This document shows positions 2,278 to 22,601 of a stretch of 64,000 nucleotides of DNA, piece by piece (position 1 is the stretch's first letter; every line of letters starts with the position of its first letter). The position numbers were made by a program, and so were the translations under genes. The notes under the pieces are model-generated. The model made no database searches. It saw only the letters and a program-made list of their open reading frames with translations, and had not been told where the DNA came from. Location of the stretch: IMG/VR virus record IMGVR_UViG_3300010430_000014, positions 25,162 through 89,161 of that record; one strand, 5' to 3'. Origin of the DNA: a virus.

Positions 2278-2763
2278 ATGAATGATTGGAAAAAATTCAA
2301 TAATGAAATCAAAGAAGCAATTGATCAGCCAAGTAAAAAAGATATGCTTCAAATGAATGATTTACACTTAGCTATTTATGAACTCGATCAAGAAAAAATT
2401 TCTTTATCCGAATCATTAAATAAAGTCGATGAACAATTAAAAATACATTATGATCGAGTTAGTGAATTACTTGATTCAAAAGATCCTCCCAATTGGGCAT
2501 GGACTTGGGAATTTAAAAAGTCTAATATTAAATGGAAAGAAGAATTCATTAATCGATTAGGCAAAGCTGAAGCAAACAAAATTCTATCCGTTGCCAAACA
2601 AAAATCTTATCCTAAGATTGGCATTCAATATATCGATCCTAATCCTGACCATATTCCCGAAACTCCAATTGCAAAATTAAAGAAAGGAAAACCTGTAAGA
2701 TTAGATCTACCCATTCCTAAATCCAATCCTTTATTTGATAGATTAGAAAAATTAAAAGGTTAA
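2278..2763 (+). CDS. Hypothetical protein with coiled coil
   Basis: AAAGGA RBS; first gene after the promoter. Confidence 0.7.
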   Translation: MNDWKKFNNEIKEAIDQPSKKDMLQMNDLHLAIYELDQEKISLSESLNKVDEQLKIHYDRVSELLDSKDPPNWAWTWEFKKSNIKWKEEFINRLGKAEANKILSVAKQKSYPKIGIQYIDPNPDHIPETPIAKLKKGKPVRLDLPIPKSNPLFDRLEKLKG

Positions 2764-3072
2764 TCACAATTGTATGTTCAATTACCACTCTGGAAATGTT
2801 ATCTTTATAGTCTTATCCAGAGATGGAGATTGTACAAAGCAATTAATACCAATCGCTATCGATGGGGTTTTAATAAAGAAGAAGTTCTTTTGTTACGTCA
2901 AATGTTTTCTAAATATATGGTGAAAGGAGGAATGAAAAAATTAAATGTAATTAGGTATGACCGATTGATTGATAAAGTCTTAGGTCATAGAATCGTGGTT
3001 GCTGATAAAGAAGAAATTGAATTAGCCCACAGGTTATTAATCATAAAAAAAATCAATTACAGGAGGTTAATC

Positions 3073-4392
3073 ATGGAAATTAAACAAGTTAAAGAATTTG
3101 GTAAAGAAGTTGGATTGAAGCTTGCTGAAATGAACAAATTGGCAGAAGATGAATTGATCCTTGAAATCATCCGTAATGTAGAACCTAAAATCCAATACAG
3201 CAAAGAACTTGTAGCATGGTATAATGAATTGGATGATGCTTTATTTGATAAAGCTGAAGCTGAATCAGGAGCTACTTCTGATGGAGAATCAGCAGCAAAT
3301 GGTGACGTTTCAATTGCCGATGTGATCGAAGTCATTGAAGGATACACAAAAGTTGCTGAATTGAAAGAAATCCTTACTGATAACGATGTTGCTCCATTAT
3401 TTGCAACATTCGATCCTGCACCTTTCAAAATGCCTAAGAAGTTAAAAGCTGCAATGATTGAACATCTACAAACACCTGCTGAAAAACCTGATACCAATGG
3501 TGATGATCAAACAGAAGAAATCCTTGAATTAATCAATGAAGCTGAAGATGAGGATGGATTAGTTACAATCTATGGTGAATATCAAACTGTATTCAATGAT
3601 ATGGAAGTGCCAGATGATATTGATGCAGAAGCACTTCAAACGGCAATGGTTGCTCACGTTGAATCAAAAAAAGGCACTACTCCCGAACCGGATAAACCAA
3701 TTTCATTGAAAGATCGATTGGCTAATAAAGGCAAAAGCAAAAAGGACAAACCTGAAGTTGATCTTGCTGAAAAATTTGATTGGTGGACACCTGATGCTGA
3801 TGGATTCAGTGTTGATGATGCATTTGCAAAAGTGGAAGAATTGAAAATGACTGAATTGCGTCAATTTGCAAAACACATTGGTCTTTCAATTGGTGTTGGT
3901 GGTGGTAATACAAAAGATGTGATTCTTGATAAGGTTGCCAGTAAGATTCAAGAAATTACTGAAGGTGTTACTCAATCTACTACTGCCGGAGAAATTGAAC
4001 TTACTGCTCAATTAATTAAAGATGCAGTAAAGGCAAAGGATCGGGAGGCTTTAGCTGAAATGTGTGAACAAGCAGACATTCAATTGAATGCACTCCAGAA
4101 AAAATCAATCCCTGGAATGGAAAAGAAATTGCTTGAAACAATCAAAGACAAAACTGATGATAAATCTACTACAACCAAAGGTAAAGCTAAACTATCTGCA
4201 AAAGAACCTATTTCAGATGCACAATCCGTTTATGCAATTATGGAAGCAATGGTTCTTGAAGGTAAATCGGAAGATGCAATCACAAAGAAAGTATCTCCTA
4301 TTTACAAAGAAAAAGGTCAATCAATTATCTTTATCAAAAAGCGTGTCAATACCATGACTCAGATTATTAAACTCGACAATAATCTGGAATAA
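3073..4392 (+). CDS. Acidic protein with repeated helix-extension-helix (Rho-N/SAP-like) modules
   Basis: AGGAGG RBS at 3061-3066 before ATG 3073 (frame open from 2770); module VEELKMTELRQFAKHIGLSIG...TKDVILDKV resembles Rho-N/HeH; several similar helical units. Confidence 0.6.
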   Translation: MEIKQVKEFGKEVGLKLAEMNKLAEDELILEIIRNVEPKIQYSKELVAWYNELDDALFDKAEAESGATSDGESAANGDVSIADVIEVIEGYTKVAELKEILTDNDVAPLFATFDPAPFKMPKKLKAAMIEHLQTPAEKPDTNGDDQTEEILELINEAEDEDGLVTIYGEYQTVFNDMEVPDDIDAEALQTAMVAHVESKKGTTPEPDKPISLKDRLANKGKSKKDKPEVDLAEKFDWWTPDADGFSVDDAFAKVEELKMTELRQFAKHIGLSIGVGGGNTKDVILDKVASKIQEITEGVTQSTTAGEIELTAQLIKDAVKAKDREALAEMCEQADIQLNALQKKSIPGMEKKLLETIKDKTDDKSTTTKGKAKLSAKEPISDAQSVYAIMEAMVLEGKSEDAITKKVSPIYKEKGQSIIFIKKRVNTMTQIIKLDNNLE

Positions 4393-4413
4393 TCTTTTAA
4401 TCGATTATAACTT

Positions 4414-4450
4414 AGCAGGGGATTGAACTCTTGATCCCCTGCTTATTATC
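4414..4450 (+). terminator. Putative intrinsic terminator/attenuator hairpin
   Basis: AGCAGGGGAT (4414-4423) pairs with ATCCCCTGCT (4434-4443); the tail is T-rich but imperfect. Confidence 0.55.
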
Positions 4451-4463
4451 TCATGGTGATAAC

Positions 4464-6035
4464 ATGACTTTTTATTATCCCCTGCCTCAATCAAAACAGA
4501 CCACAATTAAATATGATTGTGAAAAATGTGGACTGTATTCAAATACCAAATTAGAAACCCCTTTCTTTGAACCTATAATTGGAGAAAATTACAATGGATT
4601 GGTTATATTAGGACAGCAACCATCTAAAGATGATGATTTTAAATCAATTCCATTTTCAAATAAAAGAGCGCAATTAGTTAGAGCAACAGCATTTAAAAAT
4701 GGAGTTAATCTAAAAAAAGTAAGTGCATTTGTATATGCATTGCAATGTCATTCAGGAAAGAAAACTACTGATGTTCAATATAGATGTTGCCGTGAACGAT
4801 TAAAAACTCAATTAGAAGAATTAAAACCAAAGATGGTTATCTGCTGTGGAGAAATGGCATTTAAATCATTATTCGATCTAAAGAACAAAATCCCTCCAAC
4901 AAAACTCAGAGGAAGATTAATACCTAATTTTGAATTCAATTGCATAGTATTCACTCTACTTAATCCAAATGATGTTTATTCCTTTGACCGTCAATACTCA
5001 ATTAAATTAGATATAAAACGTGCATTAAAATTTTGGGTTAAGTATAACAAACGTAAAAGTGTCAATCAATTACTTGAAGAACGTAAAATTCTAAAAGATA
5101 CTCATATAATGGAAATCACAAACCCTGGAGAATTAGAAGGTTTGTTTTATTGTATTGGTAAAATGAAAAGAATAGCACTTGACTATGAAACAACCAATGT
5201 AAAACCATATGATAAATACTTTGAAATTACTCATATTCAATTCGGTAATGCTAATAATGGATGGGTAATTAATGAATCACTTTGGAAGAACTATCCTGTC
5301 TGGAAATTAATTAAAGAATTTATGCGTCATTTTTTAACAGATCCATCAATTGAAAAGATAATCCAGAATGTTAAGTTTGAAGAAAATTGTAGTCGATGGG
5401 TTTTTGGTATTGATAAAATAATAAATACTCAAGATCCAATGCTTGCTACTCATGTGATTGATGAACGTAGAGGATGTACTTCATTAGATTTTCAAAATTT
5501 AATTAGATTTGGAATTCCTCCTTATTCAGATACAGTTAAATCTTTTCTTAAAAAGAAAAACAAAGATGATAAACGTAATCGAATTCGACAAGCACCATAT
5601 GATGATATGATTACCTATGCCGGATTAGATGTAATTACAACTTTTCATAATTGGCTTTTCATTGAAAAAATATTACCTATTGCTTATCCTCAAGCTAATT
5701 TCGATTACCAATTTCTACATAGAGGGCATCAATTGTTTTCTAATATGACACACAAAGGAATCAATGCAGGAAATGATGAACTGGAAGAAATTGAAACTAC
5801 TTTAGTAAATCATATGGAAGATGTTTTAACACGTATTACTCAAATTCCTGAGTTTATTGAATACAACAAATATCTGGAAGACAAAACCAATCTTAAAAGC
5901 ACAAGCAATAAACAATTAAAAACACTTTCGATTAAAATGAAAGGAGATGGAAAATATGAAAAATCAATCGATAATGATGCAACAAACAATAATGAAAAAA
6001 AGAAAAAACCAATTAGAAGAAAGTTATCATTTTAA
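4464..6035 (+). CDS. DNA polymerase family A, N-terminal subunit (degenerate family-4 UDG-like domain + 3'-5' exonuclease + start of thumb)
   Basis: CEKCGL..GQQP..PF..QC..CC..LKPKMVICCG..LRG UDG4-like pattern; Exo I ALDYETT, Exo II QNVKFE, Exo III YAGLD; FSNMTHKGI helix leading into the thumb. Confidence 0.85.
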   Translation: MTFYYPLPQSKQTTIKYDCEKCGLYSNTKLETPFFEPIIGENYNGLVILGQQPSKDDDFKSIPFSNKRAQLVRATAFKNGVNLKKVSAFVYALQCHSGKKTTDVQYRCCRERLKTQLEELKPKMVICCGEMAFKSLFDLKNKIPPTKLRGRLIPNFEFNCIVFTLLNPNDVYSFDRQYSIKLDIKRALKFWVKYNKRKSVNQLLEERKILKDTHIMEITNPGELEGLFYCIGKMKRIALDYETTNVKPYDKYFEITHIQFGNANNGWVINESLWKNYPVWKLIKEFMRHFLTDPSIEKIIQNVKFEENCSRWVFGIDKIINTQDPMLATHVIDERRGCTSLDFQNLIRFGIPPYSDTVKSFLKKKNKDDKRNRIRQAPYDDMITYAGLDVITTFHNWLFIEKILPIAYPQANFDYQFLHRGHQLFSNMTHKGINAGNDELEEIETTLVNHMEDVLTRITQIPEFIEYNKYLEDKTNLKSTSNKQLKTLSIKMKGDGKYEKSIDNDATNNNEKKKKPIRRKLSF

Positions 6036-6621
6036 AGAAGAATTAGGTTCTCATTCATTTATTTACAAAGGAAAGAAAGCATTTATTTTAAACATAAATG
6101 AAAATATAACATTGATTAGTTCTTTTATGAAATATAGAAAAGAACTTTCTGATAGAACTAATTTAATTCATCAAAATAAATCAGTTAATTTTGATGATTA
6201 TTATAAATTCTTATTAAATTGTATGGGAATCATTGGTAATATGCTTGATGATGAAAAAATGGGATCTATTACTGCTTATTTAGATCATATTTGGAATGGT
6301 ATAAATAAAATAATAGAAAATAAAGATATAACTAACTTTGCAAAAGCTGTGGGAGAAATATCAGACATAATTACAATGATTGATTTTGTAACTGAAAAAA
6401 GTTTAAATAAAATAGATCAATCAGATATTAAACTGGCAATTGCTCAAGCTGCCATTAATGAATATAATCCTAATCTGGAAGTTCTTGATGTTCTTGAAAT
6501 CACAGATGATGGATCAATTAAAAGATTAAAAATTAAACAAAGTGAAATGGATAAACCTGAATCAAAAGAACAACAATATGATCTTAAACATATGATACCA
6601 TTGAATACAAAGGAAATCTAA
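5956..6621 (+). CDS. Hypothetical helical protein between the two polymerase halves
   Basis: AAGGAG at 5941-5946 fits ATG 5956; overlaps the upstream gene; TAATG coupling to the downstream gene; no nuclease motif seen. Confidence 0.6.
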   Translation: MKNQSIMMQQTIMKKRKNQLEESYHFKEELGSHSFIYKGKKAFILNINENITLISSFMKYRKELSDRTNLIHQNKSVNFDDYYKFLLNCMGIIGNMLDDEKMGSITAYLDHIWNGINKIIENKDITNFAKAVGEISDIITMIDFVTEKSLNKIDQSDIKLAIAQAAINEYNPNLEVLDVLEITDDGSIKRLKIKQSEMDKPESKEQQYDLKHMIPLNTKEI

Positions 6622-7832
6622 TGATTAGTGAAGCAGACTTTAATTTCAATCTTAGATCTAATCCACAAATGCAGGAATTCTTATATGAATTTCTTGGATT
6701 GACTCCTATTACAGAACCTAATGCAAAAACAGGTAATTATAAAACAGATGAACCGACAATCATTCATTATGCAGAAAATGAAAATATTGAATTCTGTAAA
6801 TTGTTATTGCAATATAGAAAACTTAACAAAGCATTGAATACTTATATTGCAGATTTAAAAAGAAATATATCTGTACATGACAATCGCATTCATCATGAAT
6901 TATGGTTGAATATACCTGAAACCTATCGATCAAGTTCATCTGATCCAAATTTACACAATCAACCTAAACATGGTGATATACTCCCAAATTTAGCTTGGAA
7001 AATAATTAGAAAAGTATTTATTCGATTAGGTACAGATTGGTTTTTATGTGAATTTGATTATGATGGTGCAGAAGTTAAAGTTGCAGGTATGTTAAGCAAT
7101 GATCCACAAATGATTGAAGATCTAAACAATGATTTAGACATGCATTCACATTGGGCAATTAGATTATTCGGAATTAAAGGATTGTCTTATACACAAATAA
7201 AAGAACAACATGAAGTAGAGAGGTTTTTAGCCAAAAATAATTTCACCTTTGCAAATTTCTTTGGTGCAGGATTTAAATCAATTGCAGAAGAAATGCGAAA
7301 AAATGATTTTTATAAAAATTATATTCATTCAATTTACAATCAACGTGCAACAAAATTAGAAACATTCGATACTTACTTTGTTAATTATTCAATCAATCAT
7401 ATACAAAAGTGTCAAAATCAATTTTGGGATAGATACACTGTTTATAAAAAATGGCAAGAATTTTTAATTGACAGTTATTACAAAAAAGGATATGTAGAAA
7501 ATCCTTTTGGATTTAGAAGAAGATATCCATTAACTTATAATGAAGTAATTAATTTTCCAATTCAGTCTTCTTCATTTTTATTATTACTTGATTCTTTAAT
7601 TCAAATTGAAGATGAACTGATGAAAGGAGGTTGGGAATCACATTTAATCAATCAGATTCATGACTCAGGTATGGGAAATGTCTATAAGTATGAAGCAGGA
7701 GATTTCATTGATATGGTAGATAATAAAATGATTTATAAACCTCATTTACAATGGACTACCAAAGTCAAAATGAAAACTGATTGGGAATTCGGCAAAAACT
7801 GGCTCGATATGAAAAAAATTAAAACCAATTAA
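6621..7832 (+). CDS. DNA polymerase family A, C-terminal (polymerase) subunit
   Basis: FNLRSNPQM thumb, TYRSSSSDPNLHNQP, motif A DYDGAE, motif B RFLAKNNFTFANFFG, NFPIQS, motif C QIHDS. Confidence 0.92.
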   Translation: MISEADFNFNLRSNPQMQEFLYEFLGLTPITEPNAKTGNYKTDEPTIIHYAENENIEFCKLLLQYRKLNKALNTYIADLKRNISVHDNRIHHELWLNIPETYRSSSSDPNLHNQPKHGDILPNLAWKIIRKVFIRLGTDWFLCEFDYDGAEVKVAGMLSNDPQMIEDLNNDLDMHSHWAIRLFGIKGLSYTQIKEQHEVERFLAKNNFTFANFFGAGFKSIAEEMRKNDFYKNYIHSIYNQRATKLETFDTYFVNYSINHIQKCQNQFWDRYTVYKKWQEFLIDSYYKKGYVENPFGFRRRYPLTYNEVINFPIQSSSFLLLLDSLIQIEDELMKGGWESHLINQIHDSGMGNVYKYEAGDFIDMVDNKMIYKPHLQWTTKVKMKTDWEFGKNWLDMKKIKTN

Positions 7833-7848
7833 ACAAACGAAAGGAGTA

Positions 7849-9345
7849 ATGCTTATGTTAAACTTAACTAACTATCAAAAGGCAGGGTATGGTTGTGTGT
7901 TTGTCGAAACAATGGAAATTAAACGTGCAATCAAATCAATTGAAATCGATGAACCATTTAAGAAAAAAATCTGGAGTCCTATTCGGGGCATCATCAATGA
8001 TATGCACCAATTCGATAAAGATCAACCAATAAGTCCAATTGATGTTCTTCGATTATCTGTCGGACAACAGGAAGATGGATCATTTGGCAATGCTCCACAA
8101 AACACCGCTTTTATTTTGGAAAATTTCGATGAATTCATTGAACAATTCGATGTAGTCCAGACTATCCTTGATATTTATGATCTATTAAAAGCCAATGCTA
8201 CCATGATTATTATGGTGGGATCTAATGCAGAGGCGATTCCCTCCAAACTTAAAGAATTCATCCCTGTTGAAAAATTTGAATTACCAAATGATGAAGAAAT
8301 CAAATTGATTGCTGATGGTATTGCCGAATCTTCAATTGAAGAATTAGGTGATAGCTATAAGGATAAATTTACAGTTAACAATTCAGTAATTGAAGCATTC
8401 AAAGGGTTGACTTGGGAAGAAATTGAAAACGCAGCAGCTAAATCAGCAGTTGAAACCCGATCATTCGATTATCGTCATATCATGGATCGTAAAGCAATGG
8501 TAATTAAAAAGACCGGATTCATGCAATTCATTGAACCTGAACCATTGGAAAATCTTGGTGGTCTGGATGAGTACAAAGAATATTGGCAATTAAGATCAGA
8601 ACCTTTCCTTAATGAATCATCCAATAAGCCTAAAGTCAAAGCTATCCTTTGTGCCGGATACCCTGGAACTGGAAAAACACTTGCTGCTAAAGTCCTTTGT
8701 TCTATTCTCAATTGGCCTGGGATCTTATTCGACATTGGTGCAATTAAAGAGGGTATTGTAGGTGAAACTGAGAAGAAGATGCGTAGAGCAACATATACAA
8801 TTGATTCCATTGGAAGATGCGTAATCATTATGGATGAAATTGAAAAGTTCTTTGGATCTGAAAGTAATACAATGGACAGTGGTGTTCAATCAGGAATGCT
8901 TGGACATATGCTTACATGGATGCAAGAAAGACAATCTGAAGGTATTCTATTTGGAACGGCAAATAAACTCGATGCACTTCCACCTGAATTCAAAAGAGCA
9001 GGTGGTCGATGGGATACTATCTTCTTTGTTAATTTACCTAATCCTAATGAAGTCAAAAAGATAATTGAAATTCACAATCGAAAATATAATGCTGATGTTC
9101 AAACAGATAATAAATTTTGCGCTCAATTATCTAATGATGGATGGTCTGGAGCAGAAATTGAACAATTGGTTAAAGATTCTCATTATGAACCAATTGAAGA
9201 AGCAATGATACATATTCCTGTTCTTTCCAAACATGAAGCTAAAAAGTTTCAAAGAACAAGAGAACAAGCACAATTGTTTCGATGGGCTAATGAAAAGAAA
9301 GAAACAACAGAAGTTAAAAAACCCCGAAAAATTAAACTTCAGTAA
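7849..9345 (+). CDS. AAA+ ATPase, Ycf46-like (degenerate N-terminal AAA + active C-terminal AAA)
   Basis: LGGLDEYK, Walker A GYPGTGKT, Walker B IMDEIEK, TAN..LPPEFKRAGGRWD second region of homology. Confidence 0.85.
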   Translation: MLMLNLTNYQKAGYGCVFVETMEIKRAIKSIEIDEPFKKKIWSPIRGIINDMHQFDKDQPISPIDVLRLSVGQQEDGSFGNAPQNTAFILENFDEFIEQFDVVQTILDIYDLLKANATMIIMVGSNAEAIPSKLKEFIPVEKFELPNDEEIKLIADGIAESSIEELGDSYKDKFTVNNSVIEAFKGLTWEEIENAAAKSAVETRSFDYRHIMDRKAMVIKKTGFMQFIEPEPLENLGGLDEYKEYWQLRSEPFLNESSNKPKVKAILCAGYPGTGKTLAAKVLCSILNWPGILFDIGAIKEGIVGETEKKMRRATYTIDSIGRCVIIMDEIEKFFGSESNTMDSGVQSGMLGHMLTWMQERQSEGILFGTANKLDALPPEFKRAGGRWDTIFFVNLPNPNEVKKIIEIHNRKYNADVQTDNKFCAQLSNDGWSGAEIEQLVKDSHYEPIEEAMIHIPVLSKHEAKKFQRTREQAQLFRWANEKKETTEVKKPRKIKLQ

Positions 9346-9346
9346 A

Positions 9347-9631
9347 ATGAATAAATATATACAACAATATTGGACAATTGATTATGAAGATCCTGATCCA
9401 TATCGAATATTAAAATGTCCTAATCCTAAATGTGGACATGAACAAGCAGAAACAAAATGGGTAGGATGGCATTCAATGGAAATTGAAGCTAAATGTCCTA
9501 AATGTAAATGTGTTTATCTACATGATTGTGAAACAGGAGCAAGTGATTTAATTTTTGTTAAAAATATAATGACATTAAAACAAAAATTAAATGCAATTAA
9601 ATTTAAATACCAATTAGAAAAAGGAGATTGA
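9347..9631 (+). CDS. Zinc-ribbon protein
   Basis: CPNPKC...CPKC; ATG directly after the AAA stop codon. Confidence 0.6.
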   Translation: MNKYIQQYWTIDYEDPDPYRILKCPNPKCGHEQAETKWVGWHSMEIEAKCPKCKCVYLHDCETGASDLIFVKNIMTLKQKLNAIKFKYQLEKGD

Positions 9632-9632
9632 T

Positions 9633-10073
9633 ATGTCACATAATGAAATAATTGATTTAGAAATAGGTGATCTCAAAGTATTAGCTGCAACAGTTAAACG
9701 AATGAATGGCGAATTGATACTTAATAAAAAAACCTATCGTTGGTATGGACATAATGTTGGTGATTACCCTTTACCGGAAGGTGTTAAAGCAGAAGATCTT
9801 GGCAAATGTAAACATGCAATTGTATTTCCTGATATTGATTATCAAGTCGGAGTAATTGAATCTCGATCTAAAAAAGGAGCATATGAATTACTTTGGGATT
9901 TTTATGATCGTCAATTGAAAGAAAGAATGGGAGGAGAAAAAGGAATTGCACTTATTCAACATTATACAATGGTAAAAGCTAAAAATGCTGCTACTCAAAA
10001 AGGTAAAATATGTCGTGAATCAATGATTAAAACCAAAACAGGAATCAAACGCAAAATAGTAATCAACGTATAA
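9633..10073 (+). CDS. DUF1257/Ycf35-like protein
   Basis: MSH start, I.DL..L, YQVGV, YELLWDFYD, L.QHY pattern; context beside a Ycf46-like AAA. Confidence 0.65.
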   Translation: MSHNEIIDLEIGDLKVLAATVKRMNGELILNKKTYRWYGHNVGDYPLPEGVKAEDLGKCKHAIVFPDIDYQVGVIESRSKKGAYELLWDFYDRQLKERMGGEKGIALIQHYTMVKAKNAATQKGKICRESMIKTKTGIKRKIVINV

Positions 10074-10084
10074 AGGAGTCAATT

Positions 10085-10288
10085 ATGCAAAAACAAATAA
10101 TCATAGAAGTCGATGAAAATGGAAAGATCAATTTTGAAACTGACGGATTTGTTGGGCCAGAATGCGTTAATAATGATATAGTCAATCATATTAAAAATGC
10201 ATTAGGCAATGGACTTGGGCCAGATCTTAAACCTATATTTTATCAGAAAGGTCAAACAAAAACAGTTCATAAAAATCTCTGTGGTTAA
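10085..10288 (+). CDS. DUF2997-like small protein
   Basis: IIIEVDENGKINFETDGFVGPEC...LG...KP.FY pattern. Confidence 0.7.
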   Translation: MQKQIIIEVDENGKINFETDGFVGPECVNNDIVNHIKNALGNGLGPDLKPIFYQKGQTKTVHKNLCG

Positions 10289-10316
10289 ACATAAAACAGG
10301 GGAATCATACTTTCAA

Positions 10317-10859
10317 ATGGATCTTTATAAAGTTATATTTATTATACCCTCAACTGGCAATCGAATTATATTTGATCAAGTTCAAGCTGAAGTTGAAATA
10401 CAAGAAAAAAATTATGAACATAAAAATGCATTTGGTGCAATTGATGCTATAATACCATTATCGCATTATTTAGATATTGTTCTTACAATACATCATCATG
10501 ATATAGCTCAATTGAATGAAGTTAAAGGACAATTATATTCAGAAGAATTATATCTTCATTTTAAAGATGCTCATCCTTGTTTAATTCGTGGAACAGTAAG
10601 AGCAATGACATTTGATAATCATAATGCAACAGTTAGATTCAAGGGTAATACAATTGATAAAACTTACGATGATTATATTACAGAAGCAACTACTCAATTA
10701 AATGAAGCTTTTGAATATACTTTAGAATCAGAAAATCCAATTGACGATGGTAAAACAGATTTTGATGAATGGAAAGAAGGTACAATTGTGAGTAAAGGAA
10801 TAAATCAAGCAGATAAAGAAAAGAAAGGTAAAGTAATTAAACGCAAACTTACTTTTTAA
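10317..10859 (+). CDS. Hypothetical protein ending KRKLTF
   Basis: ATG 10317 follows GGGGAA and avoids overlap with the upstream gene. Confidence 0.6.
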   Translation: MDLYKVIFIIPSTGNRIIFDQVQAEVEIQEKNYEHKNAFGAIDAIIPLSHYLDIVLTIHHHDIAQLNEVKGQLYSEELYLHFKDAHPCLIRGTVRAMTFDNHNATVRFKGNTIDKTYDDYITEATTQLNEAFEYTLESENPIDDGKTDFDEWKEGTIVSKGINQADKEKKGKVIKRKLTF

Positions 10860-10876
10860 AAGAAAGGAATAATGCT

Positions 10877-11770
10877 ATGCCGAAAATATCAAAAAACAAA
10901 AGCAATGAAATTAATATTTTTGACCTTGGAACCTTATGCCAATTTGAAACTCATTCATGGCAAGCACGTAAAACCATACCTAAAGAGATTAAAGAACGAA
11001 TGACTGAAGAAACTGAATGGGTATCTGGTTTTAGACGATTAATTAAAAAGGAACGTCTACAACCAATCAATTCAGTCATTACTTCAGTTCGGAACTATAT
11101 TTGGGATATCTCTTTGGAATTTCCAATTAAATCCGTTCATTTCATTTCCAATCAAGTTACAGAAGAAGCAGACATTAAACTCAGGGCATATGTTAAAATG
11201 CTTAAAAAAGAAGTTAATCTATTTGCCAAAGACTATGACAAATGGATTAAGGAATCTGAAAAAGCCTTAAAGAAAGACGGATTATTCGATAAGGGATTAT
11301 ATCCAATGAATGTTAGGAATTTATATTCAATTGAATGGAGATGGTTTGACATGACTATCCCTGCCGGAATTACTGATGAGATGTATAAGGTTGAATCTGA
11401 TCGTATTCAAAATATGATGGATGAAACAAGGCATAACTGCATTATCGCAATGCGTGAAGGATTTGGTCAATTGGTAATGCATTTAACCGATACTCTGAAT
11501 GGTAAATTGGATGGTGAAAAGCGCAGGGTCAGACCTGAATCATTGGAAAAGATTGACAAGTTCTTTGAAACCTTCAAATACAAAAATATATTCAATGATA
11601 ATCAATTGCAAGGTATAGTTACTCAAGCTAAAGATCTGTTGTCTGATGTAACTCCTAAAGATATTCGCAATGATGAATCATTGACCAAATTGATTCATTC
11701 TGAATTAAGTGATATGCAAAATGAACTTTCTAAAGCAACTGAAACATATAAACGTAAGTTAACCTTTTAG
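10877..11770 (+). CDS. DUF3150-like helical protein ending KRKLTF
   Basis: HSWQARK, RRLI...LQPI, YP...R..YSIEW pattern; AAAGGA RBS. Confidence 0.55.
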   Translation: MPKISKNKSNEINIFDLGTLCQFETHSWQARKTIPKEIKERMTEETEWVSGFRRLIKKERLQPINSVITSVRNYIWDISLEFPIKSVHFISNQVTEEADIKLRAYVKMLKKEVNLFAKDYDKWIKESEKALKKDGLFDKGLYPMNVRNLYSIEWRWFDMTIPAGITDEMYKVESDRIQNMMDETRHNCIIAMREGFGQLVMHLTDTLNGKLDGEKRRVRPESLEKIDKFFETFKYKNIFNDNQLQGIVTQAKDLLSDVTPKDIRNDESLTKLIHSELSDMQNELSKATETYKRKLTF

Positions 11771-11780: not shown

Positions 11781-12224
11781 ATGGCATATGATCCAGAATT
11801 TTCAGTTGATCGATATAACCTTGAAATTGAAGCAGAACGTCAATCAGCATTGATGCGTAAATGGACTAAACGACAAGGAAGACATAAATCATTACTCAAA
11901 TCAGCACAAAAAAATCTGGATATTCTGGAAGGTGAATTAGCTGAAGAATATAGACGTAACAAAAAAACATATGGTATTCAAAAGGATACTGATCAAGTAA
12001 TCTTTCGATTAATTAAAGGTGATCCTAAATATGAAACTCAATACAAAGAAGTAATAAAATATCAACGATTGTATGATGATGCTAAATCAGCAGTAGATTC
12101 AATTGTTGAGAAAGGATGGATGATTAAAGAATTGGTTAAACTATGGTTAAATAATTATTATTCAAATCCAATTGTTAAAGAAAATGAAATTAAACCCAAA
12201 CGAATTATTTTAAAGGAGGATTAA
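11781..12224 (+). CDS. UvsY-like recombination mediator
   Basis: FSVDRYNLEIEAERQS start, long helices, DPKY; adjacent to SSB and RecA-like genes. Confidence 0.6.
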   Translation: MAYDPEFSVDRYNLEIEAERQSALMRKWTKRQGRHKSLLKSAQKNLDILEGELAEEYRRNKKTYGIQKDTDQVIFRLIKGDPKYETQYKEVIKYQRLYDDAKSAVDSIVEKGWMIKELVKLWLNNYYSNPIVKENEIKPKRIILKED

Positions 12225-12226
12225 TT

Positions 12227-13423
12227 ATGTCATTACAAGATCGATTGAACAAAAACAAAGCAAAATTGGGATTAGGTACAAAATCTTCTGAAAGTGCAAT
12301 TGTTGATAAGTTTAAAAAGCGCAGTACAACTACATTGGAAAAAACATATGATGATAGAGATAAACAGACTAAATCAGGTGGAATGGGTAAAACTATTTTT
12401 GATCCTGAAATGCTTATAGAATATGGATTAGAAGAATGGCAACCTCATCAAACAGTAGGTGATCACTTTTTTGATATCATGCCTGTTTCATTCGATCCAT
12501 TGATTCCTTATTGCTTTGAAACATTAGTTCATTTTGCAGTAGGTTTCGCAAAAGATCAATACATTTGTCCTCATCATTCTCATAGAAAAACTTGCTATCG
12601 ATGTGAAGCTCAATCAAAACTCTATCGTAAAAAGGAAGAAATGCTTAAAATATGGTCAGAAGAACGATTCAAAGATGCAGCAAAACGATTGTATCCAAGA
12701 GATAGAGTTATTTTCTTAATCTGGAAACGTACTGAAGAATTACTGCAAGATGAACCATCTGATCTTACATTACGATTGTGGAATGCACCAAAAGAAGCAG
12801 TTCATAAAGAAATCCAAGCAAAAGTTAGAGATAAGATCAATCGAACAACATTGGATATTTCTGATATCTCTCCTAATGGTGAAGGTCGAACTGTTGGAAT
12901 GGAAATTGCAAAAAATAAAACATCAGCAGGTACATTTCCTGGGTATAGTGCATTTGAATTACATCCAAGAGAAAAACCAATTCCAAAGGAAATATTAGAA
13001 CAATTGAATAAAATCATAATTGATGCAGATGAAAATGGTTTTAATAACGCAATTGAAATGTTCATTCACTTCCCTACCTATGAAGAAATCAAAGAATCAA
13101 TGTTGACTGAAGAAGATGATGATGAAAAAACTCCTACTGCTTCTGACAAAAAATCATCATTAAAACAACAATTACAATCAAAAGACATAGAAGATGATAA
13201 TAACAAAACAGTTACCGTTGAAGAAGTTTTAAAAGAAATTGAATTAATATGTGCTGAATTACAAGAAATGCTTAATAAAAAATCTTCAATTGCATTTAAA
13301 GCATGGTGCAAAAATAATAATTACGAAGAAGCATTAGAATTTTCTGAACAGACAGCAGCAGTTGAAGCTATTATTGAAGATTTTTATGAAAAACAAATAG
13401 CTGAAGCAGATGTTGATATTTAA
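12227..13423 (+). CDS. Single-stranded DNA-binding protein (gp32-like)
   Basis: VHF..G....CP......CYRC zinc site, DISDISPNGEGRTV, acidic C-terminal region; position between UvsY-like and RecA-like genes. Confidence 0.7.
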   Translation: MSLQDRLNKNKAKLGLGTKSSESAIVDKFKKRSTTTLEKTYDDRDKQTKSGGMGKTIFDPEMLIEYGLEEWQPHQTVGDHFFDIMPVSFDPLIPYCFETLVHFAVGFAKDQYICPHHSHRKTCYRCEAQSKLYRKKEEMLKIWSEERFKDAAKRLYPRDRVIFLIWKRTEELLQDEPSDLTLRLWNAPKEAVHKEIQAKVRDKINRTTLDISDISPNGEGRTVGMEIAKNKTSAGTFPGYSAFELHPREKPIPKEILEQLNKIIIDADENGFNNAIEMFIHFPTYEEIKESMLTEEDDDEKTPTASDKKSSLKQQLQSKDIEDDNNKTVTVEEVLKEIELICAELQEMLNKKSSIAFKAWCKNNNYEEALEFSEQTAAVEAIIEDFYEKQIAEADVDI

Positions 13424-13454: not shown

Positions 13455-14582
13455 ATGGCAAGAATTAAATTGGAATCCAAAATACCCAATTTACGTGAGC
13501 GATTAAAAACTTGCGAAATATTGCCAGAAGTAGAGATAGGTTTAAAAAAACCTCTCTATTTTGTGGATTCGGGTTCTTGGATGTTAAATTTAGCATTAAC
13601 AAATCAAGTGGATCAAGGTTATCCAGTCGGTAGAGTAATTAATCCAATTGGAGATTATTCTACCGGAAAAACCTTATTAGCATGTGAAGAAGTCAATTCA
13701 ATATGGTATTTGGAGCATATACTTAAAAATAAAAAAGTTAAAATCTATTATGATGAACCAGAACATGCTTTTGATTATCGATTAGCTGCAAAGTTTAATG
13801 TACCATTAAATGAAGTATATGGATTACGTGAAGATCTAAAAGGATACAAACATAAAAAAGGTGAAAAACCTTTTACACGATCACGTACAGTTGAAGATCT
13901 TTATAATAATCTTGATCGCATTACTAAAACTGAAAGTGATTATGACATTGTTCTTTATGTATTAGATTCACTTGATTCATTAAGAGATGCAAGAGAAATT
14001 AAACATCTTAAAACAAAAGGTATTGCTAAACAAGACATGGGAGGATCTAAAGCAAGGGTATTATCTCAATTGTTTCGTAATATGATTGAAGGTGTACATA
14101 ATTCAAATATTCTATTGTTTATCTTATCTCAAATCCGAATGAATGTCGGTGTAGTATTTGGAGATCCAAATGGAAGGGCAGGTGGCAAAGCTCTGGATCA
14201 TTATGCTTCACAAATGTTTATGCTCAAAGAAATTGGAAAAATTCAAACTGAGAAAAAAATCAATCAAGGAATTGAAGTTAGAGTTAAAATTAAAAAGAAC
14301 AAAACAGGTAGTCGTTACAATGATGTTGTTTTTAATATTTTACATGGATATGGAATTGATAACTATGGATCTGCTGTAAATTTTCTTTGGGATGAAAAAC
14401 AATTTGAACGATCCGGTAATTATCTTATTTTTAATGGAGAAAAAATGTATCGAGCAGATCTAATTGAATTAGCAGCTAACAATATAAATGTTGCAGATCT
14501 TTTAAAAGAAAAATTACAATTCTATTGGAATGAAATCGTTCTTGAAGCTGAGATTGATCGAAAACCTAAATGGGGAGGTTAA
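13455..14582 (+). CDS. RecA/UvsX-like recombinase
   Basis: DSGSWMLNLAL, GYPVGR, Walker A GDYSTGKT, VLDSLD, SQIRMNVG, GGKALDHYAS, KKNK. Confidence 0.92.
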   Translation: MARIKLESKIPNLRERLKTCEILPEVEIGLKKPLYFVDSGSWMLNLALTNQVDQGYPVGRVINPIGDYSTGKTLLACEEVNSIWYLEHILKNKKVKIYYDEPEHAFDYRLAAKFNVPLNEVYGLREDLKGYKHKKGEKPFTRSRTVEDLYNNLDRITKTESDYDIVLYVLDSLDSLRDAREIKHLKTKGIAKQDMGGSKARVLSQLFRNMIEGVHNSNILLFILSQIRMNVGVVFGDPNGRAGGKALDHYASQMFMLKEIGKIQTEKKINQGIEVRVKIKKNKTGSRYNDVVFNILHGYGIDNYGSAVNFLWDEKQFERSGNYLIFNGEKMYRADLIELAANNINVADLLKEKLQFYWNEIVLEAEIDRKPKWGG

Positions 14583-15634: not shown

Positions 15635-16190
15635 CATAAACTGGATATTTAACAATCATTCAACAGAAAGGTTTTTTGAACGTACCTCTTTAAATTCAAC
15701 TAAAAAACAAATTGCTAAAGCAATAATTAATAAACAAATAACACCCTTCAAAAGAATAAATGTTACTCGATCTATGACTTACATTCATGTGAATAAAGAA
15801 ATCATTAAAACTGTTATGCATCGAAAGAAAAATAAAATCATTACAATCCTACCCTGGAAGTCCATCTATCAATACATTATCAAATTAGAAATTACTCAAT
15901 ATCAAAGTGGAGTATATACTATTCATCTATTCCCTGATTGTTACCTTGAAACTAATAAACCAAATGCTTTGACCAAAATATATAGAGAAAATATTGAAAA
16001 TATTGAATACAATCATCCATTATTCAATACAATATTTAATATAGCATGGTATTATTTTCAATTAGATGAAGAACATAAAACTATACAAAAGAAAAGGATA
16101 ACAGGGAATGAAACGTTTGAAATTAAAAGAAAAGCCAAAACGATTGAGCCTATCATCCGATACGGAATCGACCATTGCGAATTACATTGA
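15621..16190 (+). CDS. Hypothetical protein (N-terminal H..ERF.ER domain, possibly RelE/DUF4258-like fold)
   Basis: NHSTERFFER...KIITILP pattern; fold call is tentative. Confidence 0.5.
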   Translation: MKRNNINWIFNNHSTERFFERTSLNSTKKQIAKAIINKQITPFKRINVTRSMTYIHVNKEIIKTVMHRKKNKIITILPWKSIYQYIIKLEITQYQSGVYTIHLFPDCYLETNKPNALTKIYRENIENIEYNHPLFNTIFNIAWYYFQLDEEHKTIQKKRITGNETFEIKRKAKTIEPIIRYGIDHCELH

Positions 16191-16449
16191 TAATATAGAA
16201 TATTTGTTAGACGAATATCATTTACACACAAAAATAAATGAAGATCTTCCCTATTATAAATGGATTAAATACACTGACCATTTACCATTAAATGAACATA
16301 GACCTATCTTAATTTACGATTCACATTATGATAACATATCTGAAGGTATCTCTTTTGTTGCTCTACAACATGGTTTATACAGTAAGTACATGAAATATGA
16401 TAAGTATTTACCTTCCCACTGGATGCGAATAAAAAAACCGGAGGATTAA
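16108..16449 (+). CDS. DUF551-like protein
   Basis: WIKYTDHLP...ILIYD...SHWMRIKKP resembles DUF551. Confidence 0.6.
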   Translation: MKRLKLKEKPKRLSLSSDTESTIANYIDNIEYLLDEYHLHTKINEDLPYYKWIKYTDHLPLNEHRPILIYDSHYDNISEGISFVALQHGLYSKYMKYDKYLPSHWMRIKKPED

Positions 16450-17730: not shown

Positions 17731-18646
17731 TAGTCATTTAACCGGACGCAATCCTATTGCACGTTTAGATGATCTTGTTGAACTCCAATTTGAAAAATGG
17801 AAAGAAATTGTACATCATGCAAATTATTATGATGTACCAATCATTCATGCCGGAGATATATTTAACGTTGCAGTAGTAGCAAACTCATTACTTACTCGAT
17901 TGGGAGAAATATTAAATAAATTAAAACAACCATTATATTTTGTTTGGGGCAATCATGATCTTCAATATCATTCACCTGAAATGTGGGATCGTACATCTCT
18001 TGGAGTACTTTGGAAAAACAATAATAAAGTAAAACATATCTCTGAATTTTTCATGAATTATAAAGCTAAAATTAATTGGGCATGGTGGGATTGGGGATCA
18101 GATGATATACAATGGTTAGGTAATCCTCCAAAATTATTGCTCAGTCATAAAGCAATTGTTAATGATAAATTAACTGGAACAAACTCATGGATTCAAAATG
18201 ATCGAGAATTCTGTCATCCAATAAAGGAAGTACATCCAAAATTTAAACTTGTTATCTGTGGTCATTGGCATAGAACTTATAACTATAACTATCAAGGTAC
18301 AAGGGTTATAAATCCTGGGCCAATGATCAGACGCACAGTTGATGAATGGTTAAAACCTTCAGTTATATTATTAAATATTGATACATTAATACATAAGAAA
18401 ATCTATTTAGACACCCCTGATCCAGAACTCATATTATCCAGAACACATATTGAACAGAAAATTGAAACCAGAACAGATAATATTGTCAAATTTGTTGATG
18501 CATTAAAAATTAAAAAGGAATCTAAAAAAGCATCGTTTATGAAAAATCTATTTCATAACTTAGATCAACATGAAATTCCACCAAGAGTTGAAAAGGTAAT
18601 TAGAGAAACAGTAATGAGATTAATAGAAAAAGGACAATTAAAATGA
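17708..18646 (+). CDS. SbcD/Mre11-like metallophosphoesterase nuclease
   Basis: DSH, GDIF, GNHD, SH, GHWH, NPGPM motifs. Confidence 0.9.
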   Translation: MEILVVADSHLTGRNPIARLDDLVELQFEKWKEIVHHANYYDVPIIHAGDIFNVAVVANSLLTRLGEILNKLKQPLYFVWGNHDLQYHSPEMWDRTSLGVLWKNNNKVKHISEFFMNYKAKINWAWWDWGSDDIQWLGNPPKLLLSHKAIVNDKLTGTNSWIQNDREFCHPIKEVHPKFKLVICGHWHRTYNYNYQGTRVINPGPMIRRTVDEWLKPSVILLNIDTLIHKKIYLDTPDPELILSRTHIEQKIETRTDNIVKFVDALKIKKESKKASFMKNLFHNLDQHEIPPRVEKVIRETVMRLIEKGQLK

Positions 18647-19158
18647 CAAAAAGAAAATTATTTTTTAAAAACACAACTCCCTCTACTTCTTGTGATCATG
18701 TTCAACACCATTGGTTATCTGATTTATCGTGGAAAATGCAAACAGTAATAAACCAGGGGTTTCGTGCGCCTGATACACATTTTTGTAAAAAAGTTAAAAT
18801 AATATGTAGATGGATAAGATCAGTTGTGTTACAAAATGCAGACAAAGAACATACTTTCATGTGTACAAAAAAAGAAATGCCTGAAGTAGAAGAATTAGAA
18901 CATGAATTAAACTATTGCTCTGTTCATTTTGCCTCTCATTTTTTATATGCTTTAGAAATAATCGGTTATATGCATCCTGATTCAGAAATAAGAGCTTTGG
19001 GTATTAAATATTATGAAGGAATCACAAAAGATCTTTGGCATTTTAATTGTGAAACTAAAAAACAATTAAAAATACGTTTAGCAGATGTAGATCATACACC
19101 TGTTGTAAAAGAGTGTCCAAAAGAAGAATATAATGATAGATATATAAACTATGGATAA
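18643..19158 (+). CDS. Conserved-looking phage helical protein, His-rich
   Basis: HFASHFLYALEIIGYMHPD...WHFNCET motif; ATGA overlap with the upstream gene. Confidence 0.65.
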   Translation: MTKRKLFFKNTTPSTSCDHVQHHWLSDLSWKMQTVINQGFRAPDTHFCKKVKIICRWIRSVVLQNADKEHTFMCTKKEMPEVEELEHELNYCSVHFASHFLYALEIIGYMHPDSEIRALGIKYYEGITKDLWHFNCETKKQLKIRLADVDHTPVVKECPKEEYNDRYINYG

Positions 19159-20606: not shown

Positions 20607-21135
20607 AACTTTCTTTAACCCTTTAGGATTAAATTTAATTTTAAAACCAGATCTGACTTTAGATCTTCAAAAAGCAGACAATGATTATGGTATTGCTGTG
20701 CATACAATAGATAAATTTAAATTAGGTGCATTCAATGCTTACAGAATGAAAAGACATGAAAGAAGACAACAAAGACTTGGTTTTATTATTCAAACCCAAG
20801 ACTTTATTCGTGGTAACAAATTTGAAGAAGAAGATATTAATCTTGCTTCACCGGAATCCTTAAAATTAAATACATTATTACGTTGCATCGATAATATTGC
20901 TTATCGTGCAAAAAGAAGACTTATGGAAAACTCTCACGACAAAGACAAAGATGCACAATCAATAAATTATAGAGCATTATATCATAGTCTGGAAGTTGAT
21001 ATTGCCAATAGTAATTATGTTGATGCAATAGCAAAATCAGCTATTTTATTATTTGAATCAGAAATCGATGATAAAATTGAAAAGATAAAAAAAGATAAAG
21101 AAAAAAAGGATAAACTATTTAAAAAGGAAAAATAA
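20515..21135 (+). CDS. Hypothetical phage protein
   Basis: AGGAGG RBS; GVLQEVNRTFFNPLGL motif. Confidence 0.7.
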   Translation: MVKIQQSLNSINKNELIDLLENTGVLQEVNRTFFNPLGLNLILKPDLTLDLQKADNDYGIAVHTIDKFKLGAFNAYRMKRHERRQQRLGFIIQTQDFIRGNKFEEEDINLASPESLKLNTLLRCIDNIAYRAKRRLMENSHDKDKDAQSINYRALYHSLEVDIANSNYVDAIAKSAILLFESEIDDKIEKIKKDKEKKDKLFKKEK

Positions 21136-21300
21136 ATGGCTAAGAAAAAATTAAAAAAGGTAAGAAAAAGATCATTAACCATTAGACTTAAAAAAGAAAC
21201 AGACAATCATTTATTTATTATCATTGCCATAAGTGATAATAATTTTAAATGGCATGAATTAAAATTAAAAATTCCAAAAAGCAGATTTAAAGAAATGTAA
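21136..21300 (+). CDS. Small basic protein (54 aa, not in the ORF track)
   Basis: AAGGA RBS; ATG directly after the upstream TAA; MAKKKLKKVRKRSLTIRL... Confidence 0.55.
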   Translation: MAKKKLKKVRKRSLTIRLKKETDNHLFIIIAISDNNFKWHELKLKIPKSRFKEM

Positions 21301-21312
21301 AGGAAATAATAA

Positions 21313-21723
21313 ATGGCACGATTAAGTCTTCAAACTAAAGGAGAAGAAAACTTAGTAATTGAACGAAAGATTTCTTCTAAAGATCCAAACTACATACAAG
21401 TAAATGATCCATCTAATTTCAATCTGTTAAGAGACAACAGACATAATGATGAATCTTTTTCCAGAGTGGACAGATTCATGGTTAATCATTACTGGAGAGT
21501 TGGTATTGAAATACTATATGAAAGAATATTCTATCCATCTCAATTTGGTTTTGAAGAAATAGAAGATGATAAATATCATCCTTATAAAAATATGTGTAAT
21601 CAATTAATAAAAAAAGGTATTGGTCTTTATGGTGATCGGCCTATACCTCAAATTAGAAAACCTGTTCAACGTCTTACATTAGAATGTAGACCAAAAAGGA
21701 TGAAATTAGAATGCAAAGACTAA
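21313..21723 (+). CDS. Hypothetical protein with three R-hydrophobic-x-L motifs
   Basis: AAGGA RBS; MARLSL...QRLTL...KRMKL. Confidence 0.65.
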   Translation: MARLSLQTKGEENLVIERKISSKDPNYIQVNDPSNFNLLRDNRHNDESFSRVDRFMVNHYWRVGIEILYERIFYPSQFGFEEIEDDKYHPYKNMCNQLIKKGIGLYGDRPIPQIRKPVQRLTLECRPKRMKLECKD

Positions 21724-22601
21724 AATTAATACCAAATCTCGATGATGAAATCACTCTTATAATTGATGGTAGGTTCTTAGCATATCGAACCATGTATTCA
21801 CAACATGGTAAAATGTCTCATAAAGGAAATGATACTGGAATGATTTATGGATTTTTTAAATCCCTTCAGTCTATTGCTAATAAATTTGAAGTTACCAATA
21901 CAGTTATCATGTGGGATGTAACTCCATCAAAAGAAGGTATTCGTAGAGAAGAATATGAAGGTTACAAAGTCAGGGAATTAAAAGAAAAACCTGATCCTAA
22001 AGAAATAGCTATGAGAAAACAATTTGAATTTGATTATGAAGATCTTCTTTTTCTTACACATAAAATGGGATTCGCTGATTACGTTCTTCCACGTTATGAA
22101 GCTGATGATATCATAGCTTTATTTTGTAAATGCTTTGGTGGTAAAAAAATAATAGCTACCAGAGATGAAGACATGTATCAGTTAATCAATGAAAATACTA
22201 TGGTATATGATCCTGCTGCTAAAAAGAAAAAAGATTTAAAATGGTTCATGAAAACTTACGGTATCAACCCCGAACAATGGGTAGACTACAAAGCAATTGC
22301 CGGATGCAAATCAGATACCGTTCCAGGCATTCCAGGCATGGGCCATAAAAGAACATTAGATTATTTACAAGGTAAAAAGGATTATGAAAATAAAATAGTA
22401 GAACATGATAATTTATATCAATTATGTTATAATCTTGTTAAACTGCCTCATCCTTCATTAGATGGTCAAAGAATGCAATGGTTAAGAACTAATTTAGATG
22501 AAGAACAATTCATATCTTTTTGTCAATCATATAACTTTCAATCATTTTTAAATGAGATACATAACTTTTATATTTTTATGGAAGGAGGGAAATCTTGGTG
22601 A
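21711..22601 (+). CDS. 5'-3' exonuclease / flap endonuclease (T4 RNase H/PolI N-terminal-like)
   Basis: IIDG, MWD, R...YEGYK, YEADD, TRDEDMYQL, GCKSDTVPGIPGMG (helix-3-turn-helix). Confidence 0.92.
   Translation: MQRLKLIPNLDDEITLIIDGRFLAYRTMYSQHGKMSHKGNDTGMIYGFFKSLQSIANKFEVTNTVIMWDVTPSKEGIRREEYEGYKVRELKEKPDPKEIAMRKQFEFDYEDLLFLTHKMGFADYVLPRYEADDIIALFCKCFGGKKIIATRDEDMYQLINENTMVYDPAAKKKKDLKWFMKTYGINPEQWVDYKAIAGCKSDTVPGIPGMGHKRTLDYLQGKKDYENKIVEHDNLYQLCYNLVKLPHPSLDGQRMQWLRTNLDEEQFISFCQSYNFQSFLNEIHNFYIFMEGGKSW

Follow-up and report, generated by a model that had tools for sequence, protein, structure and literature searches.

A short terminal peptide shared by early phage proteins and an AAA+/DUF3150 gene module

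Cellular replisomes are organized by shared docking peptides, such as the clamp motifs, the PIP boxes and the tips of the single-strand DNA-binding proteins (SSBs). In the bacterial clamp motif a Gln comes first, followed by Leu/Phe positions (QL[SD]LF or QxxLxF). Comparable peptides are known from AAA+ ATPases: the HbYX (hydrophobic-Tyr-X) motif at the extreme C-terminus of PAN, Rpt and Cdc48, and the GQYL tail common to the mycobacterial Mpa and Bpa, dock on the 20S proteasome, while the C-terminal tail of p97 is bound by PUB/PUL domains. Polymerase, UvsX, UvsY and the flap nuclease belong to the classical interactome of the SSB gp32. Here we describe a different code, attached to an uncharacterized ATPase module, in a 64,000-nucleotide stretch of viral DNA, the whole of which is termed the window below (bases 25162-89161 of the 89,161-base IMG/VR record IMGVR_UViG_3300010430_000014; linear class, CheckV completeness ~83%, window GC ~30%). 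About a dozen unrelated early proteins carry at one end a tag of the form basic-basic-hydrophobic-x-hydrophobic, and these tags are one short linear motif under purifying selection, with the core forms R-K-L-T-F at C-termini and K/x-R-L-K-L at N-termini, often after K/R-Pro.

The tag shares some features with each of the closest described systems. As with the docking tails of AAA+ ATPases, a Cdc48-like ATPase and unrelated proteins have a very short terminal peptide in common, which would serve one site. In contrast to these tails, it reads basic-basic-h-x-h (h denoting a hydrophobic residue), occurs also at N-termini and a few residues inward, and has no proteasome-like partner known here; moreover, the phage AAA+ tails lack the penultimate Tyr of HbYX. 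As with the clamp motifs and PIP boxes, one short terminal peptide is found on many replication and repair proteins, including a polymerase subunit and a flap endonuclease (FEN). However, here Arg is invariant and Gln is not part of the pattern (although the FEN tag, MQRLKL, has one), no clamp gene was found in the genomes searched (see below), and the tag, a feature of the AAA+/DUF3150 module, is also present on non-replication proteins and plasmids. The third parallel is T4 gp32, in which, according to PMC12893549, the N-terminal KRKST (LAST motif) is the cooperativity peptide, essential for binding the neighboring gp32 core—that is, a terminal Lys-Arg-Lys docks on an SSB core. The present phage likewise encodes a gp32-type SSB, whereas its peptide is spread over many different proteins and requires a pair of hydrophobic positions. 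Finally, the module has the same families as the Ycf46 (AAA+)/Ycf35 (DUF1257)/DUF2997 set of cyanobacteria and plastids, and as the DUF3150 of mobile elements, and the gene order on plasmid CP114559.1 is that of the window. Literature searched by family names (DUF3150, DUF1257, Ycf46, DUF2997) yielded no described function for the module, the Ycf46 papers being mostly plastid genomics, and that on phage docking motifs and the module families yielded no paper describing the tail or its spread onto replisome proteins.

The terminal tag and its conservation

The original prediction had proposed a shared terminal peptide, written as [KR]-[LIM]-x-[LF], on many early proteins of the window. Every peptide that it quoted was found where it had been placed, on the following open reading frames (ORFs):

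2689..2709, + strand: KPVRLDL, residues 138-144 of 161 in ORF 2278-2763, 18 residues before its end; the weakest instance
6006..6032, + strand: KPIRRKLSF-stop, C-terminus of PolA-N (uracil-DNA glycosylase (UDG)-like/3'-5' exonuclease subunit), ORF 4431-6035
9319-9339, + strand: KPRKIKL, followed by Q-stop, C-terminus of the AAA+ ATPase, ORF 7849-9345
10839-10856, + strand: KRKLTF-stop (VIKRKLTF), in the fast-evolving ORF 10317-10859, which is inserted in the module
11750-11767, + strand: KRKLTF-stop (TYKRKLTF), C-terminus of the DUF3150-like protein, ORF 10877-11770
12192..12212, + strand: KPKRIIL, separated by KED from the stop codon of the UvsY-like mediator, ORF 11781-12224
13455..13472, + strand: MARIKL, N-terminus of the RecA/UvsX-like recombinase
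16108..16152, + strand: MKRLKL and KPKRLSL, N-terminus of ORF 16108-16449
18643..18666, + strand: MTKRKLFF, N-terminus of ORF 18643-19158, which has no orthologue among the loci examined
21313..21330, + strand: MARLSL, N-terminus of ORF 21313-21723; orthologues have MARMRL and ..MAKLNL
21658..21708, + strand: KPVQRLTL and RPKRMKL, near the C-terminus of ORF 21313-21723; orthologues have KPTRMKL and KVKRVRL
21711..21728, + strand: MQRLKL, N-terminus of the 5'-3' exonuclease (FEN), overlapping the end of the preceding ORF

The N-terminal tags each have an AGGA-type ribosome-binding site upstream of the start. For the ORF ending at 10859, the N-termini of the orthologues favor the start at 10317, as originally called, over the longest ORF from 10209. 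The UvsY-like assignment is that of PHROG 231. Relatives of the FEN begin ..MQRISL and ..MQRRRL, behind an upstream Met, and seven orthologues of ORF 2278 with distinct termini show KLTLKER, LKLKLKA or LRIKF near the C-terminus. In three carriers the tags lie outside the catalytic folds, as had been noticed from the sequence: the AAA+ tail has a predicted local distance difference test score (pLDDT) <50 at residues 484-491, the RecA domain of the UvsX-like protein begins at residue 36, and the exonuclease domain of PolA-N stops at residue 414 of 534. In the DUF3150-like protein the tag comes straight after the last conserved helix.

A few observations stand beside this list. A third exact KRKLTF occurs in a 64-aa ORF at genome 8951-9145, 16 kb before the window, 9 residues from the end of a protein that starts MSKIQL. 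In one of two complete relatives used for comparison, G001 (108 kb, terminal repeats; the other, G002, has 112 kb), a 179-aa late ORF (41716-42255, - strand) starts MAKRLNLQIK, a tag-like N-terminus outside the early arm; its neighbor is a 517-aa ORF with which the structural arm begins, and the window's record, being truncated, lacks the corresponding region. At window 5992-6035, one stretch of DNA is read in two frames, giving ..KKKKPIRRKLSF-stop as the tail of PolA-N and MKKRKNQLEESYHF.. as the N-terminus of the following ORF; both peptides are conserved in relatives.

We counted the loose motif, [KR]-[LIM]-x-[LF], at the termini of the 91 early ORFs of the whole 89-kb record (33 late ORFs; n = 138 for all ORFs). 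The N-terminal 15 residues gave 13 matches versus a mean of 4.8 in within-terminus shuffles, 5 of 5000 of which reached 13; the C-terminal 15 residues gave 9 versus a mean of 5.0, with 9 being reached in 269 of 5000; the internal rate is 0.29%. The lack of such an enrichment on the tail genes, also part of the prediction, is borne out by the 33 late ORFs, whose one N-terminal and one C-terminal match are at chance level. Restricting the count to [KR][KR][LIVMF].[LFY] within 12 residues of the end gives 9 matches in this genome, ranking first among 36 class permutations (mean 3.5, maximum 6), and again 9 in G001, with the same rank (mean 2.3, maximum 7); internal sequence shows no enrichment of this stricter motif. 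KRKLTF itself is the sole hexapeptide present in at least 3 of the 138 ORFs, against 0.0017 expected, and any hexapeptide reached at least 3 ORFs in 2 of 200 within-ORF shuffles.

Conservation was followed in 30 related IMG/VR contigs, whose SSBs range from 68% down to 36% identity, with retention of [KR][LIMVF].[LFY] in the terminal 13-14 residues being counted over 29 related loci. Retention is bimodal—high in the tagged groups and low in the untagged ones. The motif is found in 6/7 orthologues at the C-terminus of PolA-N (as RRKLSF or KRKIQF), in 13/16 at that of the AAA+ ATPase and in 18/19 at that of the DUF3150-like protein. Thirteen of the 14 orthologues of the ORF ending at 10859 finish [KR][KR]L[TS]F with bodies just 33-44% identical, the last five residues being fixed; across the groups, the flanks diverge freely. 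At N-termini, ORF 16108 has MKRL[KR]L in 7/7 orthologues, to 32% identity, and the UvsX-like recombinase matches in 11/18, with five more having MKRINI (four at the start, one behind an upstream Met). In comparison, the 13 untagged groups, of 5-19 orthologues each, have 0-3 matches per terminus. The conservation in homologues that had been proposed as a check is thus present in the tagged groups.

Across the tags, the Arg and the two hydrophobic positions are conserved while flanking residues and codons drift; the 47 distinct C-terminal instances follow the pattern [KRENQG]-R-[KR]-h-x-F, in which Arg is invariant. The two KRKLTF copies of the window differ in 4 of 6 codons, in line with what had been remarked of them, and among 26 distinct KRKLTF instances four codons are used for Arg, five for Leu, four for Thr and two for Phe, the Ser of KRKLSF being encoded by both TCN and AGY. 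As the codons vary freely, selection acts on the peptide and not on the DNA, and a DNA-level cause, such as a promoter or terminator at the gene ends, is ruled out. The Arg codon of KRKLTF (window 10839-10856 and 11750-11767, and orthologues in L001-L029) is CGC or CGT in 23 of the 26 distinct instances, compared to a genome-wide share of 21% for CGY and 2.8% for CGC among Arg codons; avoidance of a AAAAGAAAA slippery run is one possibility.

Between clades, the spelling of the tag changes in concert within each genome. The close clade has KRKL[TS]F, RRKLSF and PRKLKL; L015 and L025 have KRKIQF on PolA-N; L028 and L029 have ERKISF, QRKITF, KRKITY and ERKITF; L026 has RRRFTF and, twice, NRRFHF; and L042 has RRKFSF, NRKFTF and TRRIHF. 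The tag also moves: KPKR-h-x-L stands near the C-terminus in 16 of 24 distinct UvsY-like orthologue termini, while in L026, L042 and L044 the UvsY-like protein is tagged at the N-terminus instead (MKKLSL, MKRMNL or MTKLKL), and the DUF3150-like proteins of other clades are tagged at both ends. Given this switching of ends, we regard the tags of both termini as a single motif. Together, the retention and codon data agree with the original view of a shared, peptide-level tag under selection on unrelated early proteins, behaving like a docking code.

The AAA+/DUF1257/DUF2997/DUF3150 module

Two of the tag carriers belong to a module of four families:

7849..9345, + strand: Cdc48/p97-like AAA+ ATPase, with a degenerate D1-like domain and an active AAA domain
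9633..10073, + strand: DUF1257-like, ending KRKIVINV; 47% identical (E 1e-37) to the annotated DUF1257 of plasmid CP114559.1
10085..10288, + strand: DUF2997-like, without a tag in this phage; BLASTP E 3e-8 to the plasmid DUF2997
10877..11770, + strand: DUF3150-like; Pfam DUF3150 (PF11348) at 19.4 bits, E 7e-4, below the cut-off of 24.9

The ATPase matches PF00004 at E 2.6e-21 and has an AAA domain with AAA_lid_3, as in the classic clade. Its model (mean pLDDT 88) recovers the tandem unfoldases Cdc48, p97 and Rix7 in Foldseek at E 2e-18 over ~550 columns; we regard the N-terminal half as degenerate because one domain alone scores as AAA in Pfam. Close homologues carry the JGI name 'SpoVK/Ycf46/Vps4 family AAA+-type ATPase'. 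In some relatives the gene codes for 773-788 aa, with an intein (PF14890) and mostly an HNH domain (PF13392), making these intein-bearing module ATPases (e.g., L050 6893-9214, and proteins P0249, P0250, P0262, P0264, P0267 and P0278). The DUF1257 Pfam cut-off is passed by 2 of 5 phage orthologues, the window copy lying below it, and that of DUF2997 (24.1 bits) by all four other scanned orthologues, with the window copy at 21.0. The DUF1257-like protein and 18 orthologues end basic-basic-h-x-h (KRKIVINV, KRRMVINL, IRLVVNF), while the plasmid homologue differs (..AITLQISVGG); this protein may be a further carrier of the tag, or the strand that the tags imitate.

The phage collection gave no megablast match for window 4431-12224, a single weak tblastn match for the DUF3150-like protein, beneath an HNH gene, and no phage tblastn match for the DUF1257-like protein; this last matched three Manganitrophus plasmids. 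The Candidatus Manganitrophus (Nitrospirota) plasmid CP114559.1 codes for an AAA family ATPase, DUF1257, DUF2997 and DUF3150 (the last a homologue annotated as such), in the order of the window and with BLASTP E values of 7e-62, 1e-37 and 3e-8 to the phage module proteins. The four families thus form one operon in the same order, with one extra ORF (10317-10859) inserted in the window, and an R-[KR]-hydrophobic tail is common to the ATPase and DUF3150. On this plasmid, ..RPKRKIRIL.. is the ending of DUF3150 and ..AAKRKIRLSPGS that of an unrelated protein of 847 aa.

The tail is not special to this phage's replisome: throughout the DUF3150 family, and likewise among the Cdc48-like AAA+ proteins, it forms the C-terminal end. 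In the ATPase family, R-[KR]-hydrophobic extends down to 36% identity, as in ..VRRIS and ..VRRIK of homologues from metagenome-assembled genomes at 36-39% identity; the AAA+ tails recorded include ..PRKLKLN, ..GRKLNLH, ..DRAVNFN and ..VRRIS. A profile search with the DUF3150-like protein recovered 6040 cluster representatives, from phages and plasmids, making the module very widespread; 29 of 40 diverse members match Pfam DUF3150 at E <= 0.001 (best 1.1e-16). Among the best 150 of the 6040, 41 have R[KR]-h-x-h no more than 3 residues from the terminus, and in many more P-x-R-[KR]-h-x-h precedes an acidic or -AA extension, GC-rich members included. The tag Arg, R293, is one of four invariant columns in the 40 diverse members. 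In distant GC-rich members (P0081-P0186), many lengthen R-[KR]-h-x-h by 3-12 residues ending -AA, reminiscent of ssrA.

On plasmids L037, L038 and L039 (CP114559.1, NC_015724.1 and CP114562.1), JAB-domain and PRTRC (ThiF-related) genes lie near either the module or a DUF3150-like gene accompanied by genes for a MoxR-like ATPase and a VWA protein.

Candidate docking sites and alternative readings

What the data show is a peptide common to unrelated proteins, kept by selection, co-evolving and linked to the module. That it is a real, selected and shared tag we hold with high confidence, and its identity with the family-wide tail of the module appears likely. On balance we lean toward the reading that the tags bind one site, as a portable docking tag of the AAA+/DUF3150 module copied onto replication proteins; a single docking site would probably serve all carriers. 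A receptor within the module itself is a more tentative proposal, and that the Cdc48-like ATPase remodels the carriers is a guess. Under this proposal, the tag would be this lineage's spelling of the conserved terminal tail of the four-gene module, a tail that would have been copied, at either end, onto a changing set of early proteins: the split-PolA exonuclease subunit, the UvsX-like and UvsY-like proteins, the flap nuclease and several small ORFs. All tags would bind one site, most likely on the ATPase ring, DUF1257 or DUF2997, and the tagged proteins would be gathered at, or handed to, a protein-remodeling ATPase, with the assembly, recycling or clearing of replication and recombination complexes as possible outcomes.

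A bolder version, which we regard as possible though doubtful, is a virus-encoded Cdc48-like segregase with a portable five-residue address code, which either terminus could bear and each lineage would spell in its own way. Subunits of the polymerase, recombinase, mediator and flap nuclease would then be marked for capture by an AAA+/DUF1257/DUF2997 machine that would assemble replication and recombination complexes, recycle them or strip them from DNA, the equivalent in phages and plasmids of replisome disassembly driven by p97.

The three hubs originally considered fare unequally: the evidence favors the AAA+ ATPase or its module and speaks against a clamp. If the proposed docking holds, the clients of the module can be read off, phage by phage, from the proteins that bear the tag; here they are core replication and recombination enzymes, and this would point to a role in DNA metabolism for the relatives of the Ycf46, Ycf35/DUF1257 and DUF2997 gene set. 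The tag is also a direct experimental handle, since its receptor could be retrieved with a synthetic peptide. Beyond that, it is a clean case from nature in which a short linear motif has spread through unrelated proteins and co-evolves in concert.

Several points weigh against this reading. First, none of the analyses here shows a binding partner, and the AAA+ model leaves its own tail (484-491) disordered, with no hint of docking in cis. Second, the C-terminal count of 9 for the loose motif falls within the 2-10 range of 11 class-permuted motifs, and the N-terminal count of 4 in G001 is also within the permuted range; the loose motif is therefore only weakly above the Lys/Leu-rich background. 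The enrichment that had been called for thus holds for the strict ordered core in two genomes, whereas the motif as first written over-counts, and some of the listed instances (ORF 2278, ORF 18643) may be chance. Third, the overlapping frame also constrains the PolA-N tag. Fourth, on the sister plasmid CP114562.1 the 840-aa orthologue of the 847-aa protein ends otherwise (..DRRIIQSDRKNGGTD), so that the plasmid case of tail spread rests on one protein. Fifth, the module and a gp32-like SSB occur together in every one of the 30 phage contigs examined, and co-occurrence in phages therefore cannot separate the two as hubs.

One alternative hub is the phage's own SSB:

12227..13423, + strand: gp32-type SSB, candidate hub, with a basic N-terminal peptide, a Zn-type H..C..CxxC, an acidic linker and an added C-terminal helical domain

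Sequence searches of Pfam, PHROGs, NCBIfam and PDB gave no relevant match, and the fold search alone identified the gp32 type: the model (mean pLDDT 78) recovers the RB69 and T4 gp32 cores in Foldseek at E 3e-6 to 2e-4 and probability 1.00. H102, C114, C123 and C126, a His-Cys3 site, are invariant in 28 sequences. Residues 331-393 add a four-helix domain C-terminal to the core, and the tip of the protein, ..EADVDI, is acidic-hydrophobic. The tags would here dock on SSB-coated single-stranded DNA, perhaps imitating the basic N-terminal peptide of the SSB, the counterpart of T4 KRKST. What makes this protein attractive as a hub is that the tagged set resembles the classical gp32 interactome and that its N-terminus, of basic-basic-Leu type in all clades (..NRKKLT.., ..SKKKLI.., MALKKKL.., MALKRKF..), resembles half a tag; the T4 precedent, in which KRKST is essential for binding the neighbor's core (PMC12893549), points the same way. 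Yet the second hydrophobic position is missing from this peptide in most clades, and DUF3150 and AAA+ proteins share the tail across their families, far outside these phages. A search of the module-bearing plasmids with the phage SSB profile, which had no positive control, found nothing. Complex prediction of the SSB with the last 53 residues of the DUF3150-like protein gave no verdict, with a score of 0.00 against a mark of 0.32 and no controls, and speaks neither for nor against binding. Overall, we consider an SSB hub unlikely.

Degradation or chaperone signals read by the host (ClpXP/ClpAP-type terminal degrons, or DnaK-type basic-Leu sites) would time the turnover of early proteins. The terminal position at either end and the basic-hydrophobic composition would fit such signals, as would the ssrA-type -AA ends of many distant DUF3150 members. 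Those ends, however, are not found in this phage group, the presence of the tag on the phage's own ATPase and its constant operon partners argues for assembly and not destruction, and a lineage-specific, concerted spelling is unexpected for conserved host readers; this alternative is quite unlikely.

The original prediction had compared the tag with the clamp code, noting Arg/Lys where the clamp motifs have Gln; in this reading, a phage-specific variant of QLxLF/QxxLxF type would recruit proteins to the host beta clamp or to an unrecognized phage clamp. The h-x-h at the extreme terminus and the N-terminal RLSL/RLKL do resemble the consensus (QLSLF, QLSLPL), and a polymerase subunit and the flap nuclease are tagged. 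Phage proteins with host-clamp motifs are known, as for Mu MuC (PMC12867686). The prediction had also recognized no clamp gene, and this now extends to the whole record and the two complete relatives, none of which has a match to the DnaN, gp45 and PCNA families (PF00712, PF02768, PF09116, PF00705), the host's own clamp lying outside the comparison. The conserved residues are Arg and Lys/Arg, never Gln in the C-terminal tags, so that the invariant Arg is no stand-in for a Gln. Moreover, the tail appears ancestral to the DUF3150 and Cdc48-like AAA+ families and is also on the Nitrospirota plasmid, and concerted re-spelling between close phages fits a fast-evolving phage receptor better than a conserved clamp pocket. 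With Arg invariant in place of Gln, no clamp found, carriers without a common replication role (the AAA+ ATPase, DUF3150 and small ORFs) and the tail spread across phages and plasmids, the clamp reading is weakened and, in our view, very unlikely. The 209/224-aa ORF between the PolA halves (5947/5992-6621) was considered as a hidden clamp and seems not to be one: there are 11 homologues, Pfam and PHROGs assign it no family, and its conserved motifs (NQLEESYHF, IIGNMLD and DHIW) give no sign of a clamp in sequence.

Least probable is that the tags are non-specific DNA-binding basic tails or by-products of Lys/Leu-rich termini in an AT-rich genome: Lys does make up 13-14% of the termini versus 9.6% internally, and the C-terminal loose count is within the permuted controls, but for the core instances this is largely refuted by the exact KRKLTF recurrence, the first rank of the ordered motif in two genomes, the Arg and hydrophobic positions kept amid drift, and the persistence of the tail in GC-rich relatives, including a plasmid of 54% GC.

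Gene arms and neighboring genes

Early genes lie on the + strand up to about 28400, and structural genes on the - strand beyond. Immediately upstream of the polymerase, a conserved 540-aa ORF (window 2770-4392) was considered as a hub and set aside; it has no Pfam, PHROG, NCBIfam or PADLOC match, and its Atlas scores are <0.8. The family A polymerase is split:

4431-6035, + strand: UDG-like and 3'-5' exonuclease part, followed by an unrelated ORF
6621-7832: polymerase domain

Besides the UvsY-like and RecA/UvsX-like proteins and the 5'-3' exonuclease, the replication and recombination genes of the region include a RusA-like gene and an SbcCD-like pair, and downstream of these lie a DnaB-like helicase, an SNF2-type helicase and a primase.

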